A stretch of 60,225 nt of DNA, filler included, from Basidioascus undulatus (lineage: Eukaryota), in assembly GCA_000826855.1 (NCBI GenBank). It is 4 parts of 4 records of this genome, joined end to end, with 100 filler letters (N's around TTAATTAATTAA, not from the genome) between each part and the next. Parts side by side here need not be neighbours in the genome. Positions count along the whole stretch, not along the records: positions 10,110 to 20,084 come from JTLS01001188.1; 3 more parts are not named here. The stretch is one strand, 5' to 3'. Position numbers and translations under genes: made by a program. The notes beneath the pieces are model-generated. The model worked only from the letters and a program-made list of their open reading frames with translations. It was not told the DNA's origin and did no database searches. Position 1 is the stretch's first letter. The number at the start of each line of letters is the position of its first letter. Below, piece by piece: positions 9,138-40,568 of the stretch.

Positions 9138-9360
9138 GAGAGGAGAGGAAGGGGAACGAGGTCAGAACATCTTCCGCGGCAGGCGACTCCCGCTTCTTAC
9201 GCCCTCGCTGGCCAGTCGAGGATGAAAGGAGCTGGAGCCCCTTCCTGCCCCGGAAGGCAAACAGAGACCCAAAGAAGAAAAAAGTGCGACCAGTGCGAGA
9301 GAAAAGCGGCCGAGCTCCGAAGGGGAGATCAGGAGAAGAGCGCGCCCCCACGGCTCAGTG

Positions 9361-9780
9361 TGGGCCCGTTAGGGCGAGCAGTGTGCGCCCCCACGCGGCG
9401 GGCCCATTAAGGCGAAAAGTGTAGCGGGCCTGTGAAGGCGAGGAGTGCAGCGGGCTCGTGAGGGCAAGGAGTGCAGCGGGGCCGGCGAGGGCAAGGTGAG
9501 CGTCGGAACGCATGCGGGCCTGTGAAGGCGAGGGGATACTGCGGGCCCGTGAGGGCGAGGGAACAAGAGAGGTACCTACACTATCAGATCGCAGCCCTGG
9601 AAGTCGTTCTGTGAAGGGAAGGACGCGTGATTGAGAAGCGGGCCCCGTGAAGGCGAGATGGCGTGCGGGCCCGTGAAGGCGAGATGAGAGGCGGGCCGGT
9701 AAGGGTCGATAGAGCAGCGGGCCTGTGAGGGCGAGAGGGAATGCGGGCAGGGCTAGAGGGGAAGTGCAGGCCCGTGAGGA
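9361..9780. repeat. GC-rich minisatellite, 26-27 nt period, core GCGGGCCCGTGAAGGCGAG
   Basis: About 13 degenerate copies starting at ~9361, 9398, 9424, 9450, 9476, 9514, 9541, 9638, 9665, 9691, 9717, 9743 and 9766. Confidence 0.85.
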
Positions 9781-10009
9781 CTAGATCCCCCGCCCGACGG
9801 CCTGTCCGGGGGAAGGAACGGTCGCCCCGGCGACGGGTTGCGCGGGAGCGGTTCCCGCCGCGGGTGAGGCCAGGACGGGAGGGAGGGCGTGAGCGAGAGC
9901 GCGAGGTTAGTGTCAGTCGAGGAGTGGTGGTCCTGCAGAACAAGGAGCGTCAGCCGTGTTCGGGAAGGAAGGGAAGGTAGAGGGCGGAGGGGAAGGGGAG
10001 GGAAGGAGG

Positions 10010-10109: not shown

Positions 10110-12178
10110 GGGGTCACCGAACTCGAGGACAAGCTCGCCGCCGCCACGGACGCGTCGTCCGCATCCGCGTCCAAGATCGCCGAGCTCGAGGCGACCATCT
10201 CGGCGCACGGCGACCTCGCGACGCGCGGCGCGCAGCTCGAGAACGAACTGGCCGCAGCGCAAGAGCAAGCCTCTCGCGTCGCCGAGCTCGAGCGGCAGCT
10301 GGCTGAGTCGTCCGCGCACGCCGCGCGCGTCGCCGAGCTCGAGACGCAACTCGCCGAGCTGAGCGGCACGAGCGCGACGTCGAGCGCTGCGCACGCGCAG
10401 GAGGTCAAGCTCAAGGAGGCGACGATCTCGGCGCTGCAGGCGGAGATTGCCGAGCTCGGCGCGCTCCGGGACGAGAAGGCCGGGCTCGAGGCGCGCCTCG
10501 CCGCGGCGGAGAAGAGCGTGCGCGACGGGGAGGAGGCGCGCGAGGAGCTCCGCGCGCTTAAGGACGCGCATGGCGCGCTCGTGCAGAGCGCGAAGGACGA
10601 GAGGGAGGCGCTGGAGAGCGCGAAGGGCGAGCTGGAGAAGCTCCGCGCGGAGAGCGAGGCGCTGGAGAAGATCCATGCGGCCGCGCTGGAGGAGGTCCAG
10701 GCCAAGGTGCGGGCTGCGGAGGAGGAGGTGCGTTGCGGACTTCATTCTTCCCGCTTGTTTGATGATGGTGCCGTGGCTCATGCTGATGCGATTGATGAGA
10801 TTGACCAGGCCGCGAGCAAGGCGTCGGACCACTCGGCTGCGCTGTCCGAGGCGGACGAGCGGAGGCTCAAGGAGCTTGAGGAGCTGCGGGTCGACGCAGA
10901 GCGCAAGCTAAAGGAGGCGAGGGAGGAGGAGCTCACGAAGGCGGAGGAGATCCGGAAGGAGGCGGAGAGGCTCAAGGAGCAACTCGATGTGCGTATGCGC
11001 CGCTTTTTCCCCGAGTTTCACGTCGCCAAGTGCTGACTCTTAGTGTGCCTCGCAGACCCTCGAAGCCCGTAACGCCGCGGCGCTCAAGGCCGCGTTCGAC
11101 GACGCCAAGAACGAGGCGGGGTACGCGCACTCGCTCGAGTTGCAGGAGCTGCGCGGCGAGTCGGACGAGCTCGTCAAGCAGCTACGCGCAGGTCACGCGG
11201 ACGAGCTCGCCAGCGTGCGCCGCGAGGCGGAGGCAAAGCTTGCCGACGAGGTGCGCCGGCTAGAGGGCGCGCTGCGCGAGAAGGACGTCGAGAACGGCGC
11301 GCTCCGCGGAGACCTTGGGAAGGCGCGCGAGGCGCTCGTGCAAGCTACTAAGGAGATGGAGCGGGTGAGTGCGGGTAAGGTGAGAGGGAGGGAGAGGATG
11401 CAGAATGCTGATGGGGTCTGGGCTGGGGTGCTTCGACAGCTCAACGAGGAGCACGCCAACACCAAGGCAGCGCTGGACGAGGCGCGCCAGGCCGCAGCAT
11501 CCGCGTCCGCCACCGCCGCGGGCGCGTCGCCCGCCGACGCGGAGCGTCTGGCCAAGCTCGAGAAGGAGCTCGCGAACGCGCGCGAGGAAGTCGCGTCACT
11601 GCAGGAGGTGCACACCGTTTCGTCGCAGTCGTTCGCGGACCAGTTCGAGTCGCTCCAGGCTGCGCACGCGCGCGAGCTCGAGGACTCCGCCAAGGCGCGC
11701 GTGGAGGAGACGACGCGCCTGAAGAAGGAGTGGGGGGCGACGCGCGCGCAGCTCGAGCAGGCGGCGCATGACCTCGCGCGCGATGTCGAGTCGGAGCGCG
11801 AGGCCCGCAAGCAGGCCGAGGCGAAGCTCGTTGCCGCCCGGACGTCTGCATCTACCACCCCGCCCCCCAGCCCCGGCGCGACGGAGCTCCTCCACAAGGC
11901 GCACAACGCGAAGATCGCGGAGCTCGAGGGCGAGCATGAGCGCGCGCTCAAGGGCCTGAGGGAGCAACTCGAGGAGGTCAGCAAGGAGAAGGAGGAACAC
12001 GAGATGCTTTTGCGCTTTGCGGGGAGCGAGAGTAGGTGAACTTTGGCTCTGATGCGGAGGAGTATCTCGCCGTACATGAGCTGACTTTGGGCCGTTTGAT
12101 TGGGCAGAAGAGGAGCTGGAGCAGGAGATCGCGAACCTCAAGTCTCAGCTCCACCAGCACCAGGGCGTTGCGGCGTAA
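10110..12178 (+). CDS. Long coiled-coil protein of unknown identity; 5' truncated by the gap
   Basis: Ala/Glu/Lys/Leu-rich heptad sequence (ELEDKLAAA..., AELERQLAE...). Introns at ~10728-10808, 10989-11056, ~11364-11439 and 12032-12107. Last exon KEELEQEIANLKSQLHQHQGVAA* (TAA 12176-12178). Confidence 0.8.
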
Positions 12179-15877: not shown

Positions 15878-18752
15878 ATGAGTGGGATGAAGAAGACCAC
15901 GATAAACTCCTCTCTTTTCCAGTCAGAGGCCGAGCAATCACACACTGAGGACGTCAGTGCGCCCTCTTCAACAAAGGTGAGGGCGTCGTGTAGTACTTTC
16001 GAAGCCTTGAGGACGAGTCTTGACGCCACATTTCACAGATCCAAGGCGAGCAGGACAAGATCGTGCTCATCCAATTCGAGGAGGGTGACCCCGAGAGTAA
16101 GACGGCACGCAGTCTGCATGAAGGTTCCGCAGCGCACTGATCGACTTGGCTTAATTAGATCCCATGAACTGGAGCAAGACTCAAAAATGGATTATCGTGA
16201 GTGGGCTACCATCGGCTTGGGCGTGGTGCTGGCAAGGGGTGCAGGACCTTGGCCTACGCACACAGTTGCAGTGGCGGCGTTTGGGAGGTTGCCGCCCACG
16301 GCGACCACTTCTTTTACCCCGTTTTGAGCCCTGCTGACAATGGCATCTCGGTCGTCATAGACGGCCCTGCTGTGTATGATGACTTGCTTCATTGGTCTGT
16401 CAACATCGGCATACAGTAACACGGTCACCCCGATGGCGCGGGAGTACGGCGTATCCACAGAGGCGGCGCAAGTGGGCATGTTCACGTACGTGTTTCTACT
16501 GCAATGATAGTAATCTCGGTGAATTATATAGCTTATACAACGTTGAATGCCGTGCGTCTACAGTTTCAACGCAGCCTGTGCCATCGCTCCTCTTTTCATA
16601 GCACCGTACGTGTTTATGGACCCTCTCCTTGATTATGCGATACCACTGACTACTCTTATGATCAATTCCCAGGCTTTGCGAGCTCGTCGGACGAAGAGAG
16701 ATCTATCTCGGCGCCTACACGTGCTTCGTGCTCATCTTCCTCATACTCGCGCTCGGCAAAAGCATCGGCACCCAGATCGTCGGCCGCCTTCTCAGCGGTA
16801 TCTTCGGTTCCTGCGGTACGATCCTCGTGGGAGGAACGCTTGCGGACATCTGGGACACCGCCGAGCGGTCGGTCCCCATGTCGTGCTTCACGTTCGTGGC
16901 GATCTTCGGTACCATTGCCGCCCCGATGTAAGCGCAGTCCATTCGCTCGAACTGTCCCAGTAGAACCAAAGCTAATATAGTACCCTCCAAAAGGTACTGC
17001 GGATACATCAGCCAGCCCATCGGGTGGCGCTGGATTGAGTGGGTGCACGTAAGTCTTCACATGCGTGGATTTCCCAAACGAGCTTGAGGCTTAAATCCAT
17101 CATTTGTATAGATGATCGCCAGCGGCGTCCTCCTCATTTTTGAGATCTTCCTCCTCAAGGAGACCCGTGGCGCTGTCATTCTCGCTCGTCGGGCGAAGAA
17201 GCTCCGCAAGGAGACGGGCGACAACCGCTTCCGCGCGCCGATCGAGCTCGAGAACGAGAGCCTCAAGGGTCTCTTCCACCAGTCGTGCACCCGCTCTATC
17301 TACCTCCTCATCCGCGAGCCTGTCGTCTTCTTCTTCGGCCTGTAAATTTCCCTCCTCACCGTCCCTGTGGGCTGCGTCATCCGTCGATTCATGAGCTGAT
17401 TTCGGGCCCTTGTTTTTTCAGGTTCATTGGTAGGTTTCCTATTACATTGTCTTCATGACGGGCTTTCCGACTTACGAGAAACCCCCCTCTAGCCTTCGCC
17501 TGGGGAATTACGTTCCTGGTAGGTTTCCTATCACATTGGCTTCATAAGGGACCCCAGATTGACAGAAAACCCCCCTGCGTCCTGTAGTTCTTCAGCGTCG
17601 TGAGTAGTCCGCTACAGCCTTCCCTGTAGCGTGGTTTCTGCACCAGAGACTCATATACATATGCATACGAGAGTCCCCAAGCTAACTGTCATATAATCCC
17701 CAGATTCCCCTCACGTTCCAAGGCAACCACGGCTGGAGCGAGGGCAACTCCGGCCTGCCCTACATCTCGCTCATGATCGGCTGTGTCCTCGGCTTCATCT
17801 CCGGCTTCTGGAGCGACAAAATATATGACCAGGCGACGGAGACGAACAACGGTAAGGCGGTCCCTGAGGCCCGCCTTTACGGTGCCATGTTCTTTGCTCC
17901 CTTCTTCCCCGTCGGTACGTGATTCCTGTCGCAGCGGGACTGCCTTGTGGCCGGTCTGCGCTGATGGTATCTTGTTGGGGAGTGTACAGGCCTCTACATA
18001 TTTTCCTTCACCCAGTACAGCCATATCCACTGGGTGCGAGACTTCATCCGTCTCAACGTCATGCAGTCTGAGCTGACGTTTCCACGTGCCGCACAGATCG
18101 CGCCCATCATCGCCCTCTGCCCCATCATTTTCGGTGTGTTTTGACTGGGATAACGCAGTGAAATGTTTCCGTCCTGACGCAATTCATCACATCTTAGGCA
18201 TCTACCACGTCTTCTTGGCTGTCTACAACTGTAGGCCGCATTTACACGACATCCTGGTCCGGAGAACTCTTCCACTGACGCCTCCTCTCACCTCACCAGA
18301 CACCTCGGACTCGTACGGCGAATACAGCTCGTCCGCAATCGCCGGGCAAGGGTACGTTCCCGTTCGCGATTACGGGCCAACTTGCGCTCTTTCGTGCTGA
18401 CGTTGCTATGTTCAGTCTCATGCGTAACATGCTCGCCGCCGCCTTCCCGCTCTTCGGTACTCAGATGTTCAACAAGTAAGCCTCCTCCTCCAACAACCCT
18501 GTGGGCGTCTGCTCATCCGCAACCACTCCCCAAAAGCATGGGCTACCAGTATGCTGGCCTGCTCTGCGCGCTCATCGCCACCCTGCTCGTCCCCCTCCCG
18601 TTCATCCTCTTCAAGTGGGGTGCGGTCATCCGCAAGAAGTCCAAGTTCGCTCGACCCAGACGGGCGCGAACGACGACGAGGAGGAGAAGAAGACGGACGT
18701 CGAGAAGGCCAACCTATCGCAGTTGGGCGAAGGCACGAAGCGGACTATCTAG
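15878..18752 (+). CDS. MFS transporter, DHA1 (drug:H+ antiporter-1) family, very intron-rich
   Basis: Motifs: FEEGDPE-PMNWS, motif A PLCELVGRR, GRLLSGIFGSCG...GGTLADIW, GWRWIEW, LKETRG, EPVVFFFGL, VPEARL, DSYGEYSSSAIAGQG, AAFPLFG, LPFILFKWGAVIRKKSKFA. The C-terminal tail needs a 1-nt frameshift at ~18650. Confidence 0.92.
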
Positions 18753-20084
18753 GTTTCTTACGACTGCATATTTTTACGACTGCATAGCCACTTTAACGCA
18801 CTACTACACTACTGCTAGGATGCGCTTTTGCTCTGTTCGTGTGCTCACGACTGCGCTGTGAGGTTGCCACATGTGAATTGATCTCGTTCCCTGCGTCGCA
18901 TGTCCAGCTGCACTACACAAATACACTGGCCATGTTTTATTTTGCCACTCAGTACTCTGTGATGGGCGTAACAACAGTGCAAGGACTGCAACATTGCGCC
19001 TTGCTTGCTCAAGGCGCTAACGCCGTCGCTTCACTCTCGGGCTTGTTTGGGTGTCGCGGCCGTCAGAGCTGCTTTGACCTGTATCGTTGAACTATGGATC
19101 CCAAAGATCAAAGAATTCCTTTATTTACTCCGTTCAAATCTTGAGGGAACGTCCCATAAAGAGGAACTGATATGGTGCAGTCTGTGCTGCACGGATGGGA
19201 AAGGCCACTGTACCACCATTTCGTGCCATTTAGGGTCGTCATCAACGGACGCAGATGCACAGTCGTAACTCATGCAATGAGTTCGTGATTTCACCAAGCA
19301 TACCGAAGGTCTTCTTCATTGGCTCCGGCTTCACGGAGTGACTGTGCGCGAGCCTGCAAGGGTTCAGCATATGTCAGATCGGTCGACAACGGTACCTTGA
19401 TTTATTGTGAATATTTACCTAAAGGCTCTTTTGATCTCAACAAAGCTGACTGTCGGAATGCGCGACCTGGGTGCGACCTGTAGGACCGACTGCTGCCAAC
19501 GACGCAGCAGTGGCCGCTTCACGGCTAACCTTGCCTCAGCAGGCATGACAGACAATCTGCTAGAAGAAAAGACGGCGGAGATTCTTTGAGAATATCTCTT
19601 ATCTCTGTTGAGATGAGAAGAGGCGCACAAGCGAGCCTGCGAGCTCGGAGCAGCAGCAACTAACTCAGTCGTGAACGTCCACCACTTCTTTTGGATGTTT
19701 AGTCGGACTTGAAGGCTTATATTATACCTGCAAACGCGAGCTGAACCCGGGCAGTGCAGGGCTCGTCATTTCGTATCGGTCTACGCCACAGCCTGAGCCA
19801 CACCTTTGCTTCGCTCATGGACCTCAAGTGAAGAAAGGTTGGAGTGGAGACTAGCAAGACTACAAGGAGAAGCAATTGTCTGTGCAAATGTGAATGTGCC
19901 AGTGAGAACAGGGGTGATGCGCCCACCAATCCTAAGGTGATATGGTCACAACCCCCATCACTAACCATATACATTTCAAATACTCTCCCAATACTGCCAT
20001 TTCGGCAGTCACAAGGGCAAGTGAAGTGTCGGGACGGACCAGGAGCTTCAGCAAACTCTTCCAGCTTTCCCCCCCACCCCCCCC

Positions 20085-20184
20085 NNNNNNNNNNNNNNNN
20101 NNNNNNNNNNNNNNNNNNNNNNNNNNNNTTAATTAATTAANNNNNNNNNNNNNNNNNNNNNNNNNNNNNNNNNNNNNNNNNNNN
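20085..20184. other. Artificial contig-join spacer N44-TTAATTAATTAA-N44
   Basis: Same 100-nt linker. Flanks are C- and G-runs, typical of assembly breaks. Confidence 0.98.
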
Positions 20185-20346
20185 GGGGTATCAGGGCATT
20201 GATGGTGGTATTTGGGGCTTGATCGTTGGCAACTAGCGTAAGGAGGGGGTCGGGGTCGTACTACAAGGTTCGTATTGGTGTGTTCCTTACTGATTCATGG
20301 CGGGAAGGTCCTGATTGGGGCGGGATCGTTGGCAACTTGCCTGCAG

Positions 20347-21942: not shown

Positions 21943-22030
21943 AGCGGTGCTCCCTTTCGTGGTCTTTGTGTCTTGCTTCTCTCGTAGCGGTGCTCCCTTT
22001 CGTGGTCTCTTTGTGTCTTGCTTCTCTCGT
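21943..22030 (+). repeat. Tandem duplication of 43 and 45 nt downstream of the rrm4 stop
   Basis: AGCGGTGCTCCCTTTCGTGGTCT(CT)TTGTGTCTTGCTTCTCTCGT occurs twice, differing only by a CT insertion. Confidence 0.95.
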
Positions 22031-32255: not shown

Positions 32256-32334
32256 TCTACTGGGAAAGATATTTTCTTTGAAATTCCGGTAAGCGGGTAG
32301 CGCCAGAGGAGAATGTGATGGGTAGAATGCTCAC

Positions 32335-34070
32335 CCTGAAGGATAATCGGCAGGAAGTACGAGAATGCATAGACAGGCGCGGTCGACTGTTGAGCCTATT
32401 AGTCCTTCTCCTTTCCTACGGAAAATGAAACCACAACGGACGCCCATGAACATCAGCGCCGAAGCCCAGATCTTGAGGTCGAGCAGGTACCAGCCGACCT
32501 TCTTGAGCGTGAGCGCTGAGGGAACGATGACTGCGTCAGCCCCGGGGAGGGTCTGTCGCACAATCCGTCTTGATCATGACTCACCGTCGTGCACCTGGTC
32601 GCCGCGGTCGACCTCGATGCGATGCAGAACCAGCTTCGTCTGCTCGGGCGTGAGGTAGGTGTTCTGGCGCATGCCATACATGAACAATGGGTCTCCCGTC
32701 CGGGAACATGATCGATTCTTACTTTGTCTGGGAAGTCGGAGATGATAAACCATGAAAGGATGCCGAATGCGCAGGTGACGATCCCCTCTATGATGCTGAG
32801 TCGGACCAAGAGTTCAGCAAGGCTTCCGGAAAACGTTGCAGGGAGAAACGTACCAGATCCAGCGCCAGCCTCGAAGTCCTCCAGTCTCCTCACAAGGCTG
32901 ATCGCCCATACAAGAATAGCAGCAAACCCGCTCACACCCACAGACATGAGGTAGGAGGCGGCGAGGCTGGCGGTACAAAGCAGAGGGCCAGCTCGATGTG
33001 GCTTCCTCGGCCAGACGCAGCAGAATCACAACGTGACGAACTTGGACTTCGTAGGGGGTCTACCAGCAGGTAGTAAGGTACGGGCAACCTGGGAATAATC
33101 TGTGCACGGGAGTAGTAAGCACGACTGTGGCAAGCAGTTTCAGTTGAACAGGAGACGCACCCCGCCTCGAAGAAACCCAGCAGCGTGCGGCAGACGACGA
33201 GGACGCGCCAGTCGTGCACGAATCCCATTCCAACCAAAATACCAGCCAGTTTCGTGTCGAGGCAAGGGATCAATTGGGGAGGACCCCTCACTCATGACCG
33301 CCCCCCACGCCAGCAGATGAAGGCCAGCATGTTGGCAGTGCCAACCTTCCTAATCACGAGGTTGCCCGGCAGCTCCTGTAGTGTTGCATTCGAATTGGTT
33401 CATTTTCAATGTACTTCAGACGGGGTTCGAAGCAGCTATGGACGCACGAAGAAGAAGTAGGGAATGAAGAACATGAGCGCGGCGATCGAGTAGCGCTTGC
33501 CAACTTGGAGCTGGAGGTTGATCCCCATGCCCGCGATGCGCCTAGGGAAGGGTTAAAGCCAGATCAGTAACGTTTGAGGAGAGTATATGGGTGAGAAGGG
33601 GAAGGGGAAGGGGTTGCTTACGCGTTGGACAGGTTGGTACGATCAATCAACTGTAACCAGACGTCTATTAAGCACAGTGTTGTCGAGACGAAAGCCGTCC
33701 CACCGCAGGTTCAAGGGCTAACCGAAACCGCATAGAGTGCTCCAAGCATTGGAGCAAACGGAGGTCGACCTTACGCCTGTGTCAGTACAGGCTGTGGAAT
33801 GAGCTGGGCGAGGTGGACGCGAGGTTCAGAGTGCGGTGCAGTGCCGAACGTTGTTCAAGCGAAAAGGGAATCATGAAAGGATCATGGTCTGGAACGCTGT
33901 TGGCCCTTGTGCTAAGACGGGTTCAGTCCACTCACATTGTCTTCCTCTCAAACGCCTTGTCGAACTCGACATCGCTCCTCTCGCTGGCGGGAGGCTGTTC
34001 GTAGGCGTTGTCGACGTGTTCATATGCTGGCCTTCTCCGTGACCTGCTGGACGGGGTGCTTGTCGGCCAT
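32335..34070 (-). pseudogene. Pseudogenised, 3'-truncated paralog of the neighbouring ACS-family MFS transporter
   Basis: Similar exon structure and peptide to 37950-40568 (MADK...EFDKAFERKT, LIDRTNLSNA, WRVLVVCRTLLGFFEAG, DLKIWASALMFMG, AFSYFLPIIL). Lesions: +1 frameshift near 34022, -1 frameshift near 33750, in-frame TAG at 33060-33062, and no C-terminal half. Confidence 0.85.
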
Positions 34071-34912: not shown

Positions 34913-35131
34913 TAGTAAACCGCTCAGTTCACGGAAGTGCGACCACCAGCTTCTCCACACGCGGAATACTGGATAACAGCCTCATATAACCAATGAAAAC
35001 AGACAGACCTATGTGTACAAATATATCTTCCAAATCATGTGGGTATCGTATCCGGCAAGTCCAAACGTCATGCTTCAAAGAGTGTAGCAGAAAGTAGGAG
35101 AACCCTCGATCTCGGTGCGCTTGCCTCGGTC
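34913..35131 (-). repeat. Orphan duplicate of the last codons and 3' UTR of the ACS transporter gene
   Basis: Encodes DRGKRTEIEGSPTFCYTL* versus DQGKRAEIEGSPTFRYTL* in the intact gene. UTR matches 37787-37940 (ATGTGGGTATCGTATCCGGCAAGTC, CGACCACCAG-TTCTCC, TAACAGCCT). Confidence 0.9.
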
Positions 35132-37949
35132 TGGTACTTAATATAAAGAGTTCAATAAATACCGCAGGCTATCTGACCTGAGAAAGAGAAACACATCACC
35201 CTACACACACACACACACCAGAACAGCATGACAGCTCCGACCAACAGATCCAAGAGTTGTTGCTGTTTCCATAGGTATACCGACTTTGAGATCCCAGATA
35301 AACATTCCAGAAGGTCTCCGAAACAAGGGGCAGCTTCCCGCGAGAGGTCATTGCGGACTTGCGTGGGCCACATCAAGCCTAGTTCGTTCAGTCCGCTTGC
35401 CCTTAGCCCGCCATCAATACTTTACCGTTAATGAAGGGGCGTAAAATGTTTAATTCAAGGATGGGCGCATTCTTTGAAAGCCCCGCCCGTGCCGAAGGCA
35501 GCCCGTCCAAGTGTAGGCATGGAAAGTCACGTAAAGGGTCCCGGACAAGTTCCTCAAATCCCAGAGCCGAGGTTCCAATTATAAAACACCCTTTACAGAG
35601 ACACAACCCAGAAGAAGTCCAGTCGCTACTGGTGGGCAACGGTACCTAAGGGGAGCACGCGGTGACTCGTCGCCGACGTAGTCCTTCAACTCTCCTTCCC
35701 TCTCACCAACCTCTTCCAAAGCCGCTTAATCCGCTGATAATTTACTCGTTAAAAGTTCTGCTTGGATGTACTCTCTACTTCTGCTCAAGTAATCTGCACA
35801 AAGGCACCATGCCCCGCGCCATTCGTTCTCGCCCGTTTGAGGGCTTCTAAGTACTTCATCAACGATACACACCAAGACCGCGTGGTGGACATCTACCAAT
35901 CCATTGCAACCACTTGATGTAGATATTCTAAAACATGACTGGCTGTGTGTAGCTCCGCGACGTCCTCGAGGAGGCAAGCGCCACAGACGTCTCGTCGAAC
36001 GCCTTTAAGTACAGCGTCGATGTGGACGTGGTCACGCACATCGTCACCAAGACCTTGGCTTCCGGAGATCAACCTTCTCGACCTTGGCAGAGTCCATATC
36101 ATCACGGTACGCTGTGAGGAGCGGGCGGGATGGGACCATGTCTGAGCCAGCTGCGCTGCACACTTTGCCCTCACGCAAGTGCTGCGCTGACGTCGTCGAG
36201 CGGGATTACTTGGCAGCCAGCCTGGGTCTACAAGACCCTCGCTCTCTAGAGCATAAACAACCTCCACAGGTCTCGCGGTGAGCGCAAGAAGTGCGACTCC
36301 TCACGTCCGACCCCCGAGCCGCCTTTGCCCAAGCGCTCGCGCTCAAGGGACAAGAGCAGGAGAGACGCAGCACGATCTACACTTCCAGGTTGACGCCCGA
36401 GTTCTCCCAAGAATGGTTTGCCCGACAGCGGGGGGGAAGGAGGGGCGGTGAAGGGGGCGGTGAAGGGGAAGGGAATGGACGTACCAAGGACGCTCTGGTG
36501 CGTACCTGCCTACATGTCGTTCTTTAACCTGTCCTCGACCCACTCAAGGACTTATTGTTTGCAGAAGCGGTCCTCGCAACGCCTTCAGACGCCTTCGTTT
36601 GGGCGATCGCCATCAATACCTTGGCCGGGGACGAAGAAGACGGCCAGGTGAGCCTCTTGCATTGGGAGCCTGCCACGAGCGTTGCGTGCCGATGGAGGAC
36701 TTACTGTAACGATGGTCTGGAAGTATTACGTCCCATACCATTATCTGACAGAGGTGCGGAGCAGTTCGTTCCCGCCGCCATAGCCGCCCGATACGCTAAC
36801 ACGACTGGGTGCGCAGATCGGTCGCTTGCTCACCCTCTACCCGCACGACAGGAACTTTGAGACCAGCTTCTATGCCCCGACACCCGCATCTGTGAGAACA
36901 ACCTGCGGCGTCTTGGTTCATCACTTGATGCTGTCAGTTTTGGGGTACAGACGGCTTCGTGACTTGCCTCTGCTTCAAGGACATCCCTTTCGGGCCGCAC
37001 CCCGACATGACGAGCGGTCGCACGCCCAACGGCCCCATCCATCTCCGACGTTACGAGGGTAGGCAGATGGCCCCAGATCTTTCGATCTTGGGCATGCACT
37101 AATGTCCGGTTACGAATAAACGTCGCCGGGGTACGCACGTCCACGTCGCGCGTGGGCCCGCTTCGACTCAACCCCGCAAGGTGCGCGTGGTACTTCAGCT
37201 TGCAGCTTCATTCCCTTACATGGAATGAATTCGGTTACCCTTAACGAATTTCCTTCCTCAAGAACCTTTCTCCGACGTGTCGGTGATATCGTTTCAGGCG
37301 CTGAGCTTTGCTTTGCCACCCATCTCTGCATCCGTCGCTGACAAGCCACCTTTAACTTTCCCCAGTCCGCCTTTCTTGCTGTCTGCCGTCCTAAAAAAGG
37401 TTAATGTTTGCCCTGTTAATAGCAAACAAGTCCTGTGTATTCCAATCGAGCTTCGTGATGACCTTCTTGGAATGTTAAGTGATTAGAAACCCGATGTCAC
37501 TCTGTTTGAGATATATGATACTTGACATACTTTAGAGGTCCGGTACCTCTGAGAAGATTCAGTCTGAAAGTTTTTACCACCCGGGATGCGTGCATGCGGT
37601 GCAGACACGGGTCAGAAATTGAGCGTGCATCATCGGCGTTGCATTGCAGCCTTGGCTTCTGGTGTGGACTGCATCGCAGCGCAATGTACGCTATTTCGTC
37701 CATGTAATTCTGACCGAAAAACTCATCCGTAACATATTTGATCATCGTTTTCCGTAGTGAGAATGGAGGATCCGCCTTCACTGTCCAGTAAAACGCTCAG
37801 GCATTGGAGTACGACCACCAGGTTCTCCGCACACGTACACCAGGGTAACAGCCTTGCATGAAGAATGAATAACAGATAACCGTAGTAGTACAAAATCTCT
37901 TCCAAATTATGTGGGTATCGTATCCGGCAAGTCGTGGCGCCGTGCGTAC

Positions 37950-40568
37950 TTAAAGGGTGTAGCGGAATGTAGGAGAACCCTCGATCTCGGCGCGCTTGCC
38001 CTGGTCGGCGCGCTTGTTCTGGATTGCGAAGTAGATCGCGCTGGCTCCCGCAATAGCGATGATCATGAGCTGGCATGCGATGGTCGCCCAGAGACCAGGG
38101 AGGCTGTTTCGGCAGCAACGCTGTCAGTTGGTAGTCTGTGGTCGGAGCTCTACTTCATACGCACTATGCAGGGGCATCTTGCTGACGGTAGACAGTGGAA
38201 GCGAAGATGCCGCCAATGGCACCTGGTGAATGGGCACGGTCGTCATCATGCCGTCCTAATTTAACATAACGCGGATGGATTGACGTACCGAAGCCGACCA
38301 CCAGGGCGCTGCTCACAGCGCGCTTAGATTGACCGCGGATGTTGTTGGCGTTCCAGGCCAGAACCTGAGACAAAATAAACATGAGTAAATGAAACCGGGG
38401 GGAGCGTTCAGCGGCAACACTCACAGCGGGGATGTTGCCCTGGCACCCAGCGATGCCGAGGACTGCGTGCAGCGCTCACAGCGTCAGCCTGCTTCTTCTG
38501 CCATACAGCCAGATTCTATCATTAAGCCTTGACCTACAAGTTCCGAAGTAGCGAACTCCGTTGTTCTTGTGGTAGGCCGTGATGGCAAGCCCAACGATCG
38601 AAATCGTCGCTTGGAGGATGATGAAGAGCGACCGGACGCTGTACTTGTCGGCGAGGCGGGCGAGGACCAAGCAGACGATGACGGTCTGATCAGGGGGAGG
38701 CGCGGGGGAGAGGAATGGAAGGAGTCGTATAAGCATGTGGATAGGAACGAGGTAGTGGGGATGAAGAGCAGCATTTGGGTCTCACCGTCACGTAAGGGGG
38801 CGCACTCAGGAGCTGGGAGTCGCGAACCGAGTAGCCGAACCCCCGGAGGATAATGGGCAGGAAGTAGGAGAACGCATATGCAGGCATGGTGCTCTAATTC
38901 ATGAAAGAAAGACATTAGTACCGGGTATGATCGAGGGCGGCGAAGGTGAAGAAGGCAGCGAGGGTGCCGAGGCTGCGGGCACGTGAGCGAAGGAATTGAA
39001 ACACGCACACCCATGAACATTAGAGCAGACGCCCAGAGCTTCAGGTCGCAAAGGTAACGGCCAGTCTTGGCAAGAGTGAGGGCTGCGGACGAGCAGTGTA
39101 AGCGATCCCAGCTTTGATGCCTACGCCTGCAACGCAAAGGCCACTCACGGTCGTGAACCTGGTCCCCACGGTCTTCCTCGATGCGGCGGAGGACGAGCTT
39201 CTTCTGTTCGGACGTGAGGTATGTGTTCTGCAGGCGGTGCCAGAAGTGAGCAAGCGTTATCGGAGCGGGAGAGGTAGAACGGCGGGTTCCCTACCCGGTC
39301 AGGGAAGTCGATGATCAAAAACCAGGCAAGGATTCCGAGAGCGCATGTAGCGACACCCTCGATGATGAAGATCCACCTAGTGAAAGGGCGTCAATTAGGC
39401 TCTCGAGCAGACCGGATCTGGGATGGAGTCTGGCACGAGAAGCTTACCGCCAGCCGCGAATGCCGGACGTGCCCTCCATGAGTGAAAGCGCCCAGGCGAT
39501 GATGGCGGCGAAGCCAGACACGCCGACAGACATGAGGTAGAAGAAAGCCAGCCTAGTAGATCAATGCTTTTCTAGTCAATGGTGCGCCGGCGTGCAGAAG
39601 TGAATAGTGGACGACTCACCGGACCTGGACCTCGTAACGGGTAAACCAGCAAGTGATCAAGAACGCGCAGCCGGGGAAGAATCTGTGGTTTATTAGTACA
39701 TGCCTTACCAGAGCGTAGGTGATCGACATACCCAGCCTCGAAGAGTCCCAGCAGAGTGCGACAGACGACGAGCATCCGCCAATCCTTCACGAAACCCATT
39801 CCGACTGTGGACGCAAGGCTCAGCGTTCCAAGCCTCAATCTGACACCGAAAATAGAGCAGCTTACTCATGACGGCCCCCCAGGCAAGGACGATGAAGGCA
39901 AGTAGGTTTCGCGGTCCAACTTTCCGAATCACCTGGACACGGCCTGAGGTCAGTCCTGATGCAGGCTGCGGTGCGTCCAAGCTGCTCACCATGTTGGCGG
40001 GAAGTTCCTGATTGGCGAAGCGTATTTCAGACTAGATACGAGATATACCCAGAAGACAAGTTAAACAAGCACTCACGAAAAGGAAGTAGGGCACGAAGAA
40101 AATGAGAGCTGCTGCCGAGTAGCGCTCACCGACGAACAGCTGCAAGTCCTTCTCCATGCCTACGCGTGCTTGTGAGCGTCTTAATCGATGGAGCAGTACA
40201 TCAGAACTTACCAGCAATGCGTGCATTGGACAAGTTGGTACGGTCTATCAACTACAGGAAACCGTCCGTTCAGCGGTGTAGTGGAGAGGAATGAGAATCA
40301 ACGCACCGAAACCGCATAGAGTGCCCCAAGAATTGGGAGCAAACGAAGGTCGACCTGGCGCCTAATGAAGCAGCAATGTCAGCACACAGTCCGCAGGATG
40401 AGCTCTGTTACAAGGGCTTGATCGTTAAACGCACATCGTCTTCCTTTCAAAGGCCTTGTCAAACTCGGGCTCGCTCCTTTCGCTGGCGGGCTCGCGAGCG
40501 AACGAGTCCTCGACATACTCGAGGCTCTCCTTGTCGCTGGCGTGTTGGCTAAGCTGCTTGTCGGCCAT
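37950..40568 (-). CDS. MFS transporter, anion:cation symporter (ACS; Dal5/Tna1-like) family
   Basis: Motifs: RQVDLRLLPILGALYAVSLIDRTNLSNARIAG, FFVPYFLFELPAN, RTLLGLFEAGFFPGC, GWRWIFIIEG, DFPD, AFSYFLPII, QLLSAPPY, NNIRGQSKRAV, YRQQDAP. Ends EGSPTFRYTL*. Confidence 0.93.

Follow-up and report, generated by a model that had tools for sequence, protein, structure and literature searches.

Within a 60,225-nt stretch of Basidioascus undulatus DNA (assembly GCA_000826855.1; hereafter the 60-kb window, along whose full length all positions are counted), a gene for an MFS-type transporter runs from 15878 to 18753 on the + strand. Its ~1.7 kb of coding sequence is interrupted by 17 GT-AG introns, two adjacent ones of which, referred to here as intron A (17430–17492) and intron B (17519–17587), appear to be copies of one another and form the subject of this study. 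The exon model was built by eye and by script from the ATG at 15878; its start codon and 3′ limit are modelled, and its C-terminal frame is unsettled. Apart from A and B, 14 of the 15 introns measure 60–104 nt and one measures 164 nt. The peptide encoded by exon 17112–17339 matches basidiomycete MFS transporters (i.e., Wallemia at 74–75%, Stereum at 74%, and Rhodotorula at 72–74%), and PF07690 was found on 30 of its 31 protein matches, with the window's own protein being absent from that collection. Nearest to the whole model were a metagenome fragment (76.5%) and a Wallemia mellicola protein (67.5%). Moreover, a homologue that is 66% identical to the model (P0005) carries PF07690 at 102.7 bits, while exon 16674–16925, scanned singly and not as part of the spliced protein, scored 30.1 bits against MFS_1 (PF07690; cut-off of 33.4).

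Introns A and B are the middle members of a cluster of four introns (i.e., 8, A, B, and 11) situated within 46 coding bases, so that the exons between them are micro-exons of 8, 26, and 12 nt. On the + strand, with the last completed residue and the phase given for each intron, this cluster consists of intron 8 (17342–17421; 80 nt, residue 300, phase 2), the 8-nt micro-exon (17422–17429), intron A (63 nt, residue 303, phase 1), the 26-nt micro-exon (17493–17518; coding for a portion of a conserved transmembrane stretch), intron B (69 nt, residue 312, phase 0), the 12-nt micro-exon (17588–17599), and intron 11 (17600–17703; 104 nt, residue 316, phase 0). Across this region, the spliced model protein aligned without gaps to 13 of 13 homologues, which means that all four introns are needed at exactly these borders (the 8-nt micro-exon likewise being required for collinearity) and that no peptide is repeated.

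Three sequencing runs, none of them recorded as RNA, bear on the assembly and splicing of this region, i.e., X1 (2014), X2 (2025), and X3 (from the same sample as X2 and labelled "DNA?"). Both X1 and X2 contained the whole 3-kb stretch as DNA in one contig each, with 0 differences from the window. These runs are possibly the source of the window and in that case not independent of it, yet they are two separate assemblies, and since they agree, and since the longest exact repeat in the A/B region is 15 nt, mis-assembly of the A/B arrangement is unlikely. X3, on the other hand, yielded one 1901-nt contig (at a depth of 79) from which all 17 model introns, including A and B, had been removed exactly. 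Thirteen of its joints were listed as GT..AG skips at the model coordinates. The two remaining joints carried leftover letters between their sides, namely the inner ones of the 8-nt micro-exon in one case and all 12 of the 12-nt micro-exon in the other, as is to be expected of an aligner that is unable to place exons so small. The X3 contig holds the 8-, 26-, and 12-nt micro-exons in a row. It was also found that X3 holds 0.38 of the sampled words, which is approximately the share of 31-mers lying wholly inside exons (hand count), and that the joined (spliced) form is missing from the DNA runs X1 and X2. Since the introns are skipped in X3 and the joined form is missing from X1 and X2, X3 is cDNA-like, and introns A and B are precisely removed by the spliceosome. 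As an assembled contig, X3 is uninformative on splicing efficiency, retention, exon skipping, and minor isoforms.

Both introns start with GTAGGT and end with TAG, and their first 27 nt match at 25 positions. The likeness begins in the preceding exons, where the dinucleotide TG directly before intron A equals that before intron B and the exon heptamers are similar. A 5′ repeat block on the + strand, composed of 2 exon bases and the first 27 intron bases (17428–17456), is 27/29 (93%) identical to its counterpart at 17517–17545, and in a direct-repeat search the match extended over 17428–17461 versus 17517–17550 (30/34 identical), with a start-to-start spacing of 89 nt. Further downstream, a C-rich box of 10 nt recurs exactly on the same strand (17479–17488 in intron A, where it lies just 3′ of the likely branch site, and 17567–17576 in intron B), at a distance of 22 nt from the 5′ block in intron A and 21 nt in intron B, and branch-like motifs are aligned between the 5′ block and the box. 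A gapped local alignment of both introns, running from the 5′ splice site through the C-rich box, showed 48 identical columns out of 61 (79%), with 8 mismatches and 5 gap columns. Beyond the C-rich box the introns diverge, with 4 nt remaining to the 3′ end in A and 11 nt in B. Their differences consist of 8 substitutions and 4 small indel events, plus 8 further nt before the 3′ splice site.

This likeness clearly exceeded what unrelated introns of this gene display. Within the window, blastn-short matched A to B at E = 1e-5, and the 27-mer pattern (allowing ≤3 mismatches) occurred at these two sites only, with 0 matches expected in 100 shuffles. Among the 136 possible pairs of the gene's 17 introns, the A–B pair had the top score of 50 (next 30, median 13). 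When the splice-site bases were trimmed, the pair still scored 38, which was reached by 0 of 5000 shuffles (largest score of 23). Moreover, 19 of 21 bases past the splice-site hexamer are identical, and the exact 10-nt box follows at the same distance. Judged by these sequence comparisons, introns A and B are homologous, i.e., paralogous copies. An earlier note on this DNA, made from its sequence alone, had described A and B as such copies, with similar exon ends and without any duplicated coding sequence. On re-reading the sequence, the coordinates, content, exon ends, and spliced peptide that it gave were all as it had put them. Its reading of A and B as copies agrees with the pair ranking and shuffles, and that of an unduplicated coding sequence with the gapless alignment to all 13 homologues. 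Both junction pairs are used in the X3 transcript contig, while the X1 and X2 DNA assemblies showed no sign of the mis-assembly it had asked to be checked.

The other two introns of the cluster are not related to A or B, as 758 (8–A), 706 (8–B), 263 (A–11), and 816 (B–11) of 2000 shuffles scored as well as the actual pairs. Separately, introns 8 and 17 (17351–17383 versus 18484–18519) gave a 37-column gapped alignment with a score of 30, i.e., the second highest of the 136 pairs, which was reached by 0 of 5000 shuffles. Intron 8 reaches scores of 28–29 against unrelated sites in the window as well, which makes the 8/17 pair borderline, and both introns may be a second, older same-gene pair. 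An apparent intron of another gene (12033–12107) also matches intron 8 at 19 of 22 nt around the branch site (blastn E = 0.8), probably by chance.

The 60-kb window was also searched for further relatives of A and B. No third copy was found in it by blastn-short at a word size of 7, by Smith-Waterman comparison with 180-nt chunks of both strands (best other score of 22–24 vs. 44 for the sister intron, the latter coming from the one chunk that holds the sister intron's 5′ part), by an nhmmer profile of A plus B (next match at E = 3.6), or by the mismatch-tolerant 27-nt pattern. Direct repeats within 400 nt and self-blast revealed no other neighbouring look-alike introns in the window, Tandem Repeats Finder returned 0 rows, and Rfam gave 0 matches at E up to 1. 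Predicted folds of A and B had energies of –12.8 and –13.0 kcal/mol (z = –1.15 and +0.10, respectively), with 23 and 100 of 200 shuffles folding at least as well, and no unusual fold came from the 6 nt over which the 5′ end is complementary to the C-rich box. This 6-nt stretch is the sole inverted match between the intron ends, which display no clear terminal inverted repeats, and no target-site duplication compatible with the coding sequence was seen when reading the flanks of either copy.

To compare intron positions, 80 loci were taken from a single metagenome scan, whose query alignment had the exon-8 peptide at its head, and were aligned with a custom spliced protein-to-DNA aligner that recovers the window's four introns exactly; the borders in relatives are predictions without transcript confirmation. 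With positions coded as residue completed and phase, introns 8, A, B, and 11 correspond to (300,2), (303,1), (312,0), and (316,0), respectively. None of the 80 loci has an intron at (300,2), (303,1), or (312,0), one of them (L004) has an intron at (316,0), and 53 lack introns over residues 293–320. Among the orthologue-like loci (alignment score ≥200), 27 out of 29 are free of introns there, and the two exceptions, checked by eye, are L003 at (312,2) and L004 at (304,2) beside a one-residue insertion, plus its intron at (316,0). Distant paralogue-like loci have introns at (300,0) in 12 cases, at (303,2) in 2 cases, and at (311,2) in 2 cases; little weight was given to loci with a score <90 (i.e., L007, L052, L074, L076, L079, and L080). 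In a whole-protein run on six loci, exact sharing was confined to (65,0) with L002, (106,2) with L002 and L004, and (316,0) with L004, i.e., 3 of the 17 positions. The positions of A and B are thus not widely conserved, in a set of relatives that are all distant (identity in the flanking exon is ≤68%, and the best protein fragment reaches 76.5%).

These results also bear on two further suggestions of the earlier note. The idea that A and B might belong to an introner-like family found no support, given that none of four methods revealed a third copy in the 60-kb window, that both introns are of ordinary length, and that a stable fold is absent. Its "possible recent gain" held in part: the gain is partly supported by the absence of the exact A or B position from all 80 relatives, while "recent" found no support, the copies differing by 8 substitutions, 4 indel events, and 8 further nt. 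The DHA1 label that the note gave to the gene is a putative one, the family check having covered the MFS_1 superfamily. As separate observations on the relatives, L001–L006 and L042 have many introns that lie 1–5 nt off those of the window gene and in another phase (e.g., residues 412/413, 423/424, 461/461, 224/225, and 385/386), and the contig end of L004 (2955–2992) resembles sequencing-adapter sequence, so its last bases are presumably not genomic.

The reading that we favour, and consider probable though well short of certain, is a same-gene intron duplication without exon duplication, i.e., an intron gain by local intron transposition. One of A and B would have been copied from the other, or both from one lost common copy, and the copy, free of coding sequence, would have been placed within the same gene at a distance of 26 coding bases. 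It brought along a 5′ splice site, a branch region, and a C-rich tract. Afterwards, the 8 substitutions and a few 1–2-nt indels would have accumulated, and the final bases ahead of the 3′ splice site would have been remodelled.

With regard to the mechanism, our preference, held with low confidence, goes to templated copying at the DNA level, in which break repair or a replication template switch would have used the intron 89 nt away as filler, with copying primed on the short exon similarity before both introns, and in which selection would retain only the cleanly spliced product. In favour of this route are the identical TG and similar heptamer before both introns, together with the survival of both flanking introns (8 and 11) as well as the sister intron, and the remodelled 3′ end of intron B fits a DNA-level event. 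In the textbook alternative, the intron would have been reverse spliced into the same transcript, followed by reverse transcription and recombination. We rate this second route somewhat lower, since cDNA from mature mRNA would erase three neighbouring introns 8, 26, and 12 coding bases away, and the survival of these neighbours implies that reverse splicing would depend on a template that was still largely unspliced. We also considered, and rejected, a patchwork of local templated insertions, because the 362-nt region contains 0 exact direct repeats ≥8 nt besides the A/B repeat, a count that is ordinary among 643 other windows. The 3′ junction of intron A did resemble the inside of intron 11 (p = 0.007), in a comparison chosen by eye.

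Several points nevertheless weigh against local intron transposition. In a hand alignment, the two near-perfect blocks hold 2 mismatches in 37 nt versus 8 in the 20 ungapped columns between them (Fisher p = 0.002), although this test is post hoc, its p-value shifts between 0.002, 0.03, and 0.08 with the block cut, and the contrast is much weaker under gapped alignment. If real, such uneven identity may better suit later partial homogenisation or selective constraint than a single copy event. Furthermore, introns of relatives are situated 1–4 nt from A (in L033, L037, and L004) and 1–2 nt from B (in L003, L050, and L064), and if introns slide, the positions of A and B could be old in both cases. 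The relatives are too distant to date the copying or to give its direction. The copy count covers the 60-kb window, so that confinement to one gene holds for that window, and a dispersed low-copy family may exist beyond it. Finally, neither sub-mechanism left a direct signature, as the 3′ junction lacks clear microhomology, and the B-specific 3′ tail compared with its flanks gave non-significant p-values of 0.05 and 0.41.

The near-misses and the uneven identity lead to a first rival explanation, i.e., that both positions are old and that the likeness stems from a later ectopic transfer (a short-tract gene conversion, or a template switch by which the sequence of one intron was partly replaced with that of the other). 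Intron 11, next to the pair, is demonstrably shared with L004, and the possibly patchy identity (two near-perfect blocks around a poorer middle) and the relatives' introns within a few nucleotides of A and B point the same way. However, the exact A or B position occurs in 0/80 relatives, and near-misses are expected by chance because the relatives have 16 distinct intron positions within 26 codons. Conversion also requires prior homology, while two unrelated introns of ~65 nt that are 26 nt apart provide only 4–7 nt of exon similarity, and the kept order and spacing of the blocks and branch motif favour homology over the whole length. On balance, we regard such a transfer between old introns as unlikely, though a partial overwrite by a template switch is conceivable.

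The limited extent of the copy search bears on a second rival explanation, in which A and B are members of a dispersed family (either low-copy introns or degenerate introner-like elements; ILEs) and were inserted independently from elsewhere in the genome. Homologous introns are described as the hallmark of such families (PMC3609843, PMC4457414), the rest of the genome lies outside the 60 kb that were searched, and the host gene, with 17 introns in ~1.7 kb of coding sequence, is unusually intron-dense. Against it stand the failure of four methods to reveal a third copy in these 60 kb (with the next nhmmer match at E = 3.6) and the lack of a target-site duplication, with only a 6-nt inverted match between the ends. 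Moreover, A and B are of ordinary length and without a stable fold, whereas ILEs are described as longer and more stable (PMC3609843). Pezizomycotina is the fungal group named as bearing Introners by Gozashti et al. (2022; PMC9860276), in the main text of which the string "Basidiomyc" occurs 0 times. Two independent insertions 26 nt apart would also be improbable unless insertion were local, and a dispersed origin consequently strikes us as an improbable account of this pair.

Far less likely still is an 89-bp tandem segmental duplication of one intron and its flanking exon, of which the surplus coding sequence was later lost. The start-to-start spacing of 89 nt and the start of the repeat 2 nt inside the exon would suit such an event, and half of the same-gene duplications reported in PMC3609843 are of this type. 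Yet no residue of the protein is repeated or surplus, its alignment with all 13 homologues is gapless, 89 is not divisible by 3, intron B is just 6 nt longer than A and cannot hide 26 surplus bases, Tandem Repeats Finder returned nothing, and the units do not align past the C-rich box. A related candidate, i.e., an intron born by tandem duplication of an exonic AGGT, was rejected because the likeness joins the 5′ ends of two introns and not the two ends of one. Lastly, it is scarcely credible that A and B lack a common origin and resemble each other by chance or by convergent selection on splicing signals around a micro-exon: both do flank the 26-nt micro-exon, and their first 6 nt and pyrimidine tract are signal-constrained, but the pair score and the shuffle statistics ruled this out (19/21 identical past the hexamer plus the exact 10-nt box, with 0/5000 shuffles reaching the trimmed score), and the other introns flanking micro-exons, i.e., 8 and 11, share nothing with A/B.

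Local intron transposition within one gene has precedents. Extending van der Burgt et al. (2012), Collemare et al. (2013; PMC3609843) reported 82 introns from same-gene duplications (SGD) in 11 of 24 fungi, with normal length and folding energy, about 40 of which (across the 24 fungi) were without exon duplication. A and B are alike in being similar introns of one gene whose length and predicted folding energy are those of ordinary introns (PMC3609843). They differ in that the published set was "near-identical" by BlastN (PMC3609843), compared to 93% over 29 nt and 79% over 61 columns for A/B. A and B are furthermore immediate neighbours, 26 nt apart, in a cluster of four introns and three micro-exons, and their one-gene confinement is known for the 60-kb window. 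Cryptococcus neoformans is a basidiomycete, while the remaining species of that survey are ascomycetes. For C. neoformans, 0 SGD were tabulated (PMC3609843), whereas the host here is a basidiomycete by its nearest proteins. As a case of homologous introns in one basidiomycete gene, PMC3514964 and PMC3609843 cite a C. neoformans gene with several similar introns (Sharpton et al. 2008). These were ascribed to duplication of exonic repeats, unlike A/B, where neither exon nor peptide is repeated. In addition, Croll and McDonald (2012; PMC3514964) described gained or lost introns in Cryptococcus and Fusarium as showing no sequence similarity to one another.

The ILEs of Dothideomycetes and other ascomycetes share with A/B that they are homologous spliceosomal introns with canonical signals and a proposed source of new introns (PMC3609843, PMC4457414). 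They are, however, described as occurring in tens to hundreds of copies in unrelated genes, at approximately twice the regular intron length and with stable folds, in contrast to two copies of 63 and 69 nt in one gene. Likewise, the transposon-type Introners of Gozashti et al. (2022; PMC9860276) resemble A/B in their copy-and-paste origin, but are described with target-site duplications and/or terminal inverted repeats, neither of which is present at A/B (apart from the 6-nt inverted match), and no family was seen here. The best-supported assignment is that the A/B pair is a member of the already described, rare SGD class, as the features that were tested fit SGD and not ILEs.

Outside fungi, intron gain by double-strand-break repair with short flanking repeats was reportedly found in Daphnia by Li et al. 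in 2009. This type of repair is similar to the route proposed for A/B in that a spliceable filler is acquired at the DNA level, with short similar sequence at the junctions. It differs in that the filler does not stem from a neighbouring intron, while the microhomology at A/B amounts to 2 exact nt (TG) and an imperfect heptamer. In Oikopleura dioica, some intron pairs are said to lie in the same gene and to have been read by Denoeud et al. in 2010 as propagation by reverse splicing. The near-identical introns of this species (PMC3609843) are like A/B in being homologous intron pairs read as propagation, and unlike them in belonging to an animal lineage.

The origin of new spliceosomal introns is still debated, and most well-documented gains stem from high-copy introner families. 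Clean same-gene intron copies without exon duplication are few, and A/B offers a compact example with confirmed splicing in which the copies are immediate neighbours. As the host gene is highly conserved, the sequence before insertion is known, and the surviving adjacent introns constrain the mechanism, since a route via cDNA of mature mRNA should have erased them. Given the full genome and a sister species, the pair could separate RNA-level from DNA-level intron transposition; alone, it changes nothing that is known. We further entertain, as a tentative and rather doubtful extension of local transposition, that the pair is the footprint of active local intron copy-and-paste in an intron-dense basidiomycete lineage, with the four-intron cluster as a hotspot built by that process, re-insertion 26 nt away proceeding via reverse splicing into the nascent transcript or via templated break repair. 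If true, further neighbour pairs should be present in the genome, and the lineage would be a tractable one for studying intron multiplication without transposon-like introners.

At the 3′ end of the host gene (~18640–18753), the frame that follows from the last confirmed junction encodes an arginine-rich tail that runs beyond the end of the transcript contig. Another frame encodes an acidic tail ending at the stop codon at 18751–18753, the start of which loosely fits the homologue consensus as far as that consensus extends. The window is matched here by the two DNA assemblies and by the cDNA-like contig alike, so that a genuine frameshift or an altered C-terminus seems more likely than a sequencing error.

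Elsewhere in the window, positions 9350–9800 contain a GC-rich minisatellite (unit of ~26 nt) along with several repeat families. Two N runs with a 12-nt TTAA-type linker in between occur at ~20085–20185, next to a 37-nt direct repeat of 78% identity (20201–20237 versus 20304–20340). Two diverged duplicated segments, ~6.5 kb apart, are located at 32334–33991 and 38841–40490 (65–90% identical in pieces), and a second duplicated pair, 2.9 kb apart and with 77% identity, at 34914–35131 and 37787–38006. Finally, positions 21943–22030 contain a short tandem duplication of ~44 nt, the copies of which are 93–100% identical.

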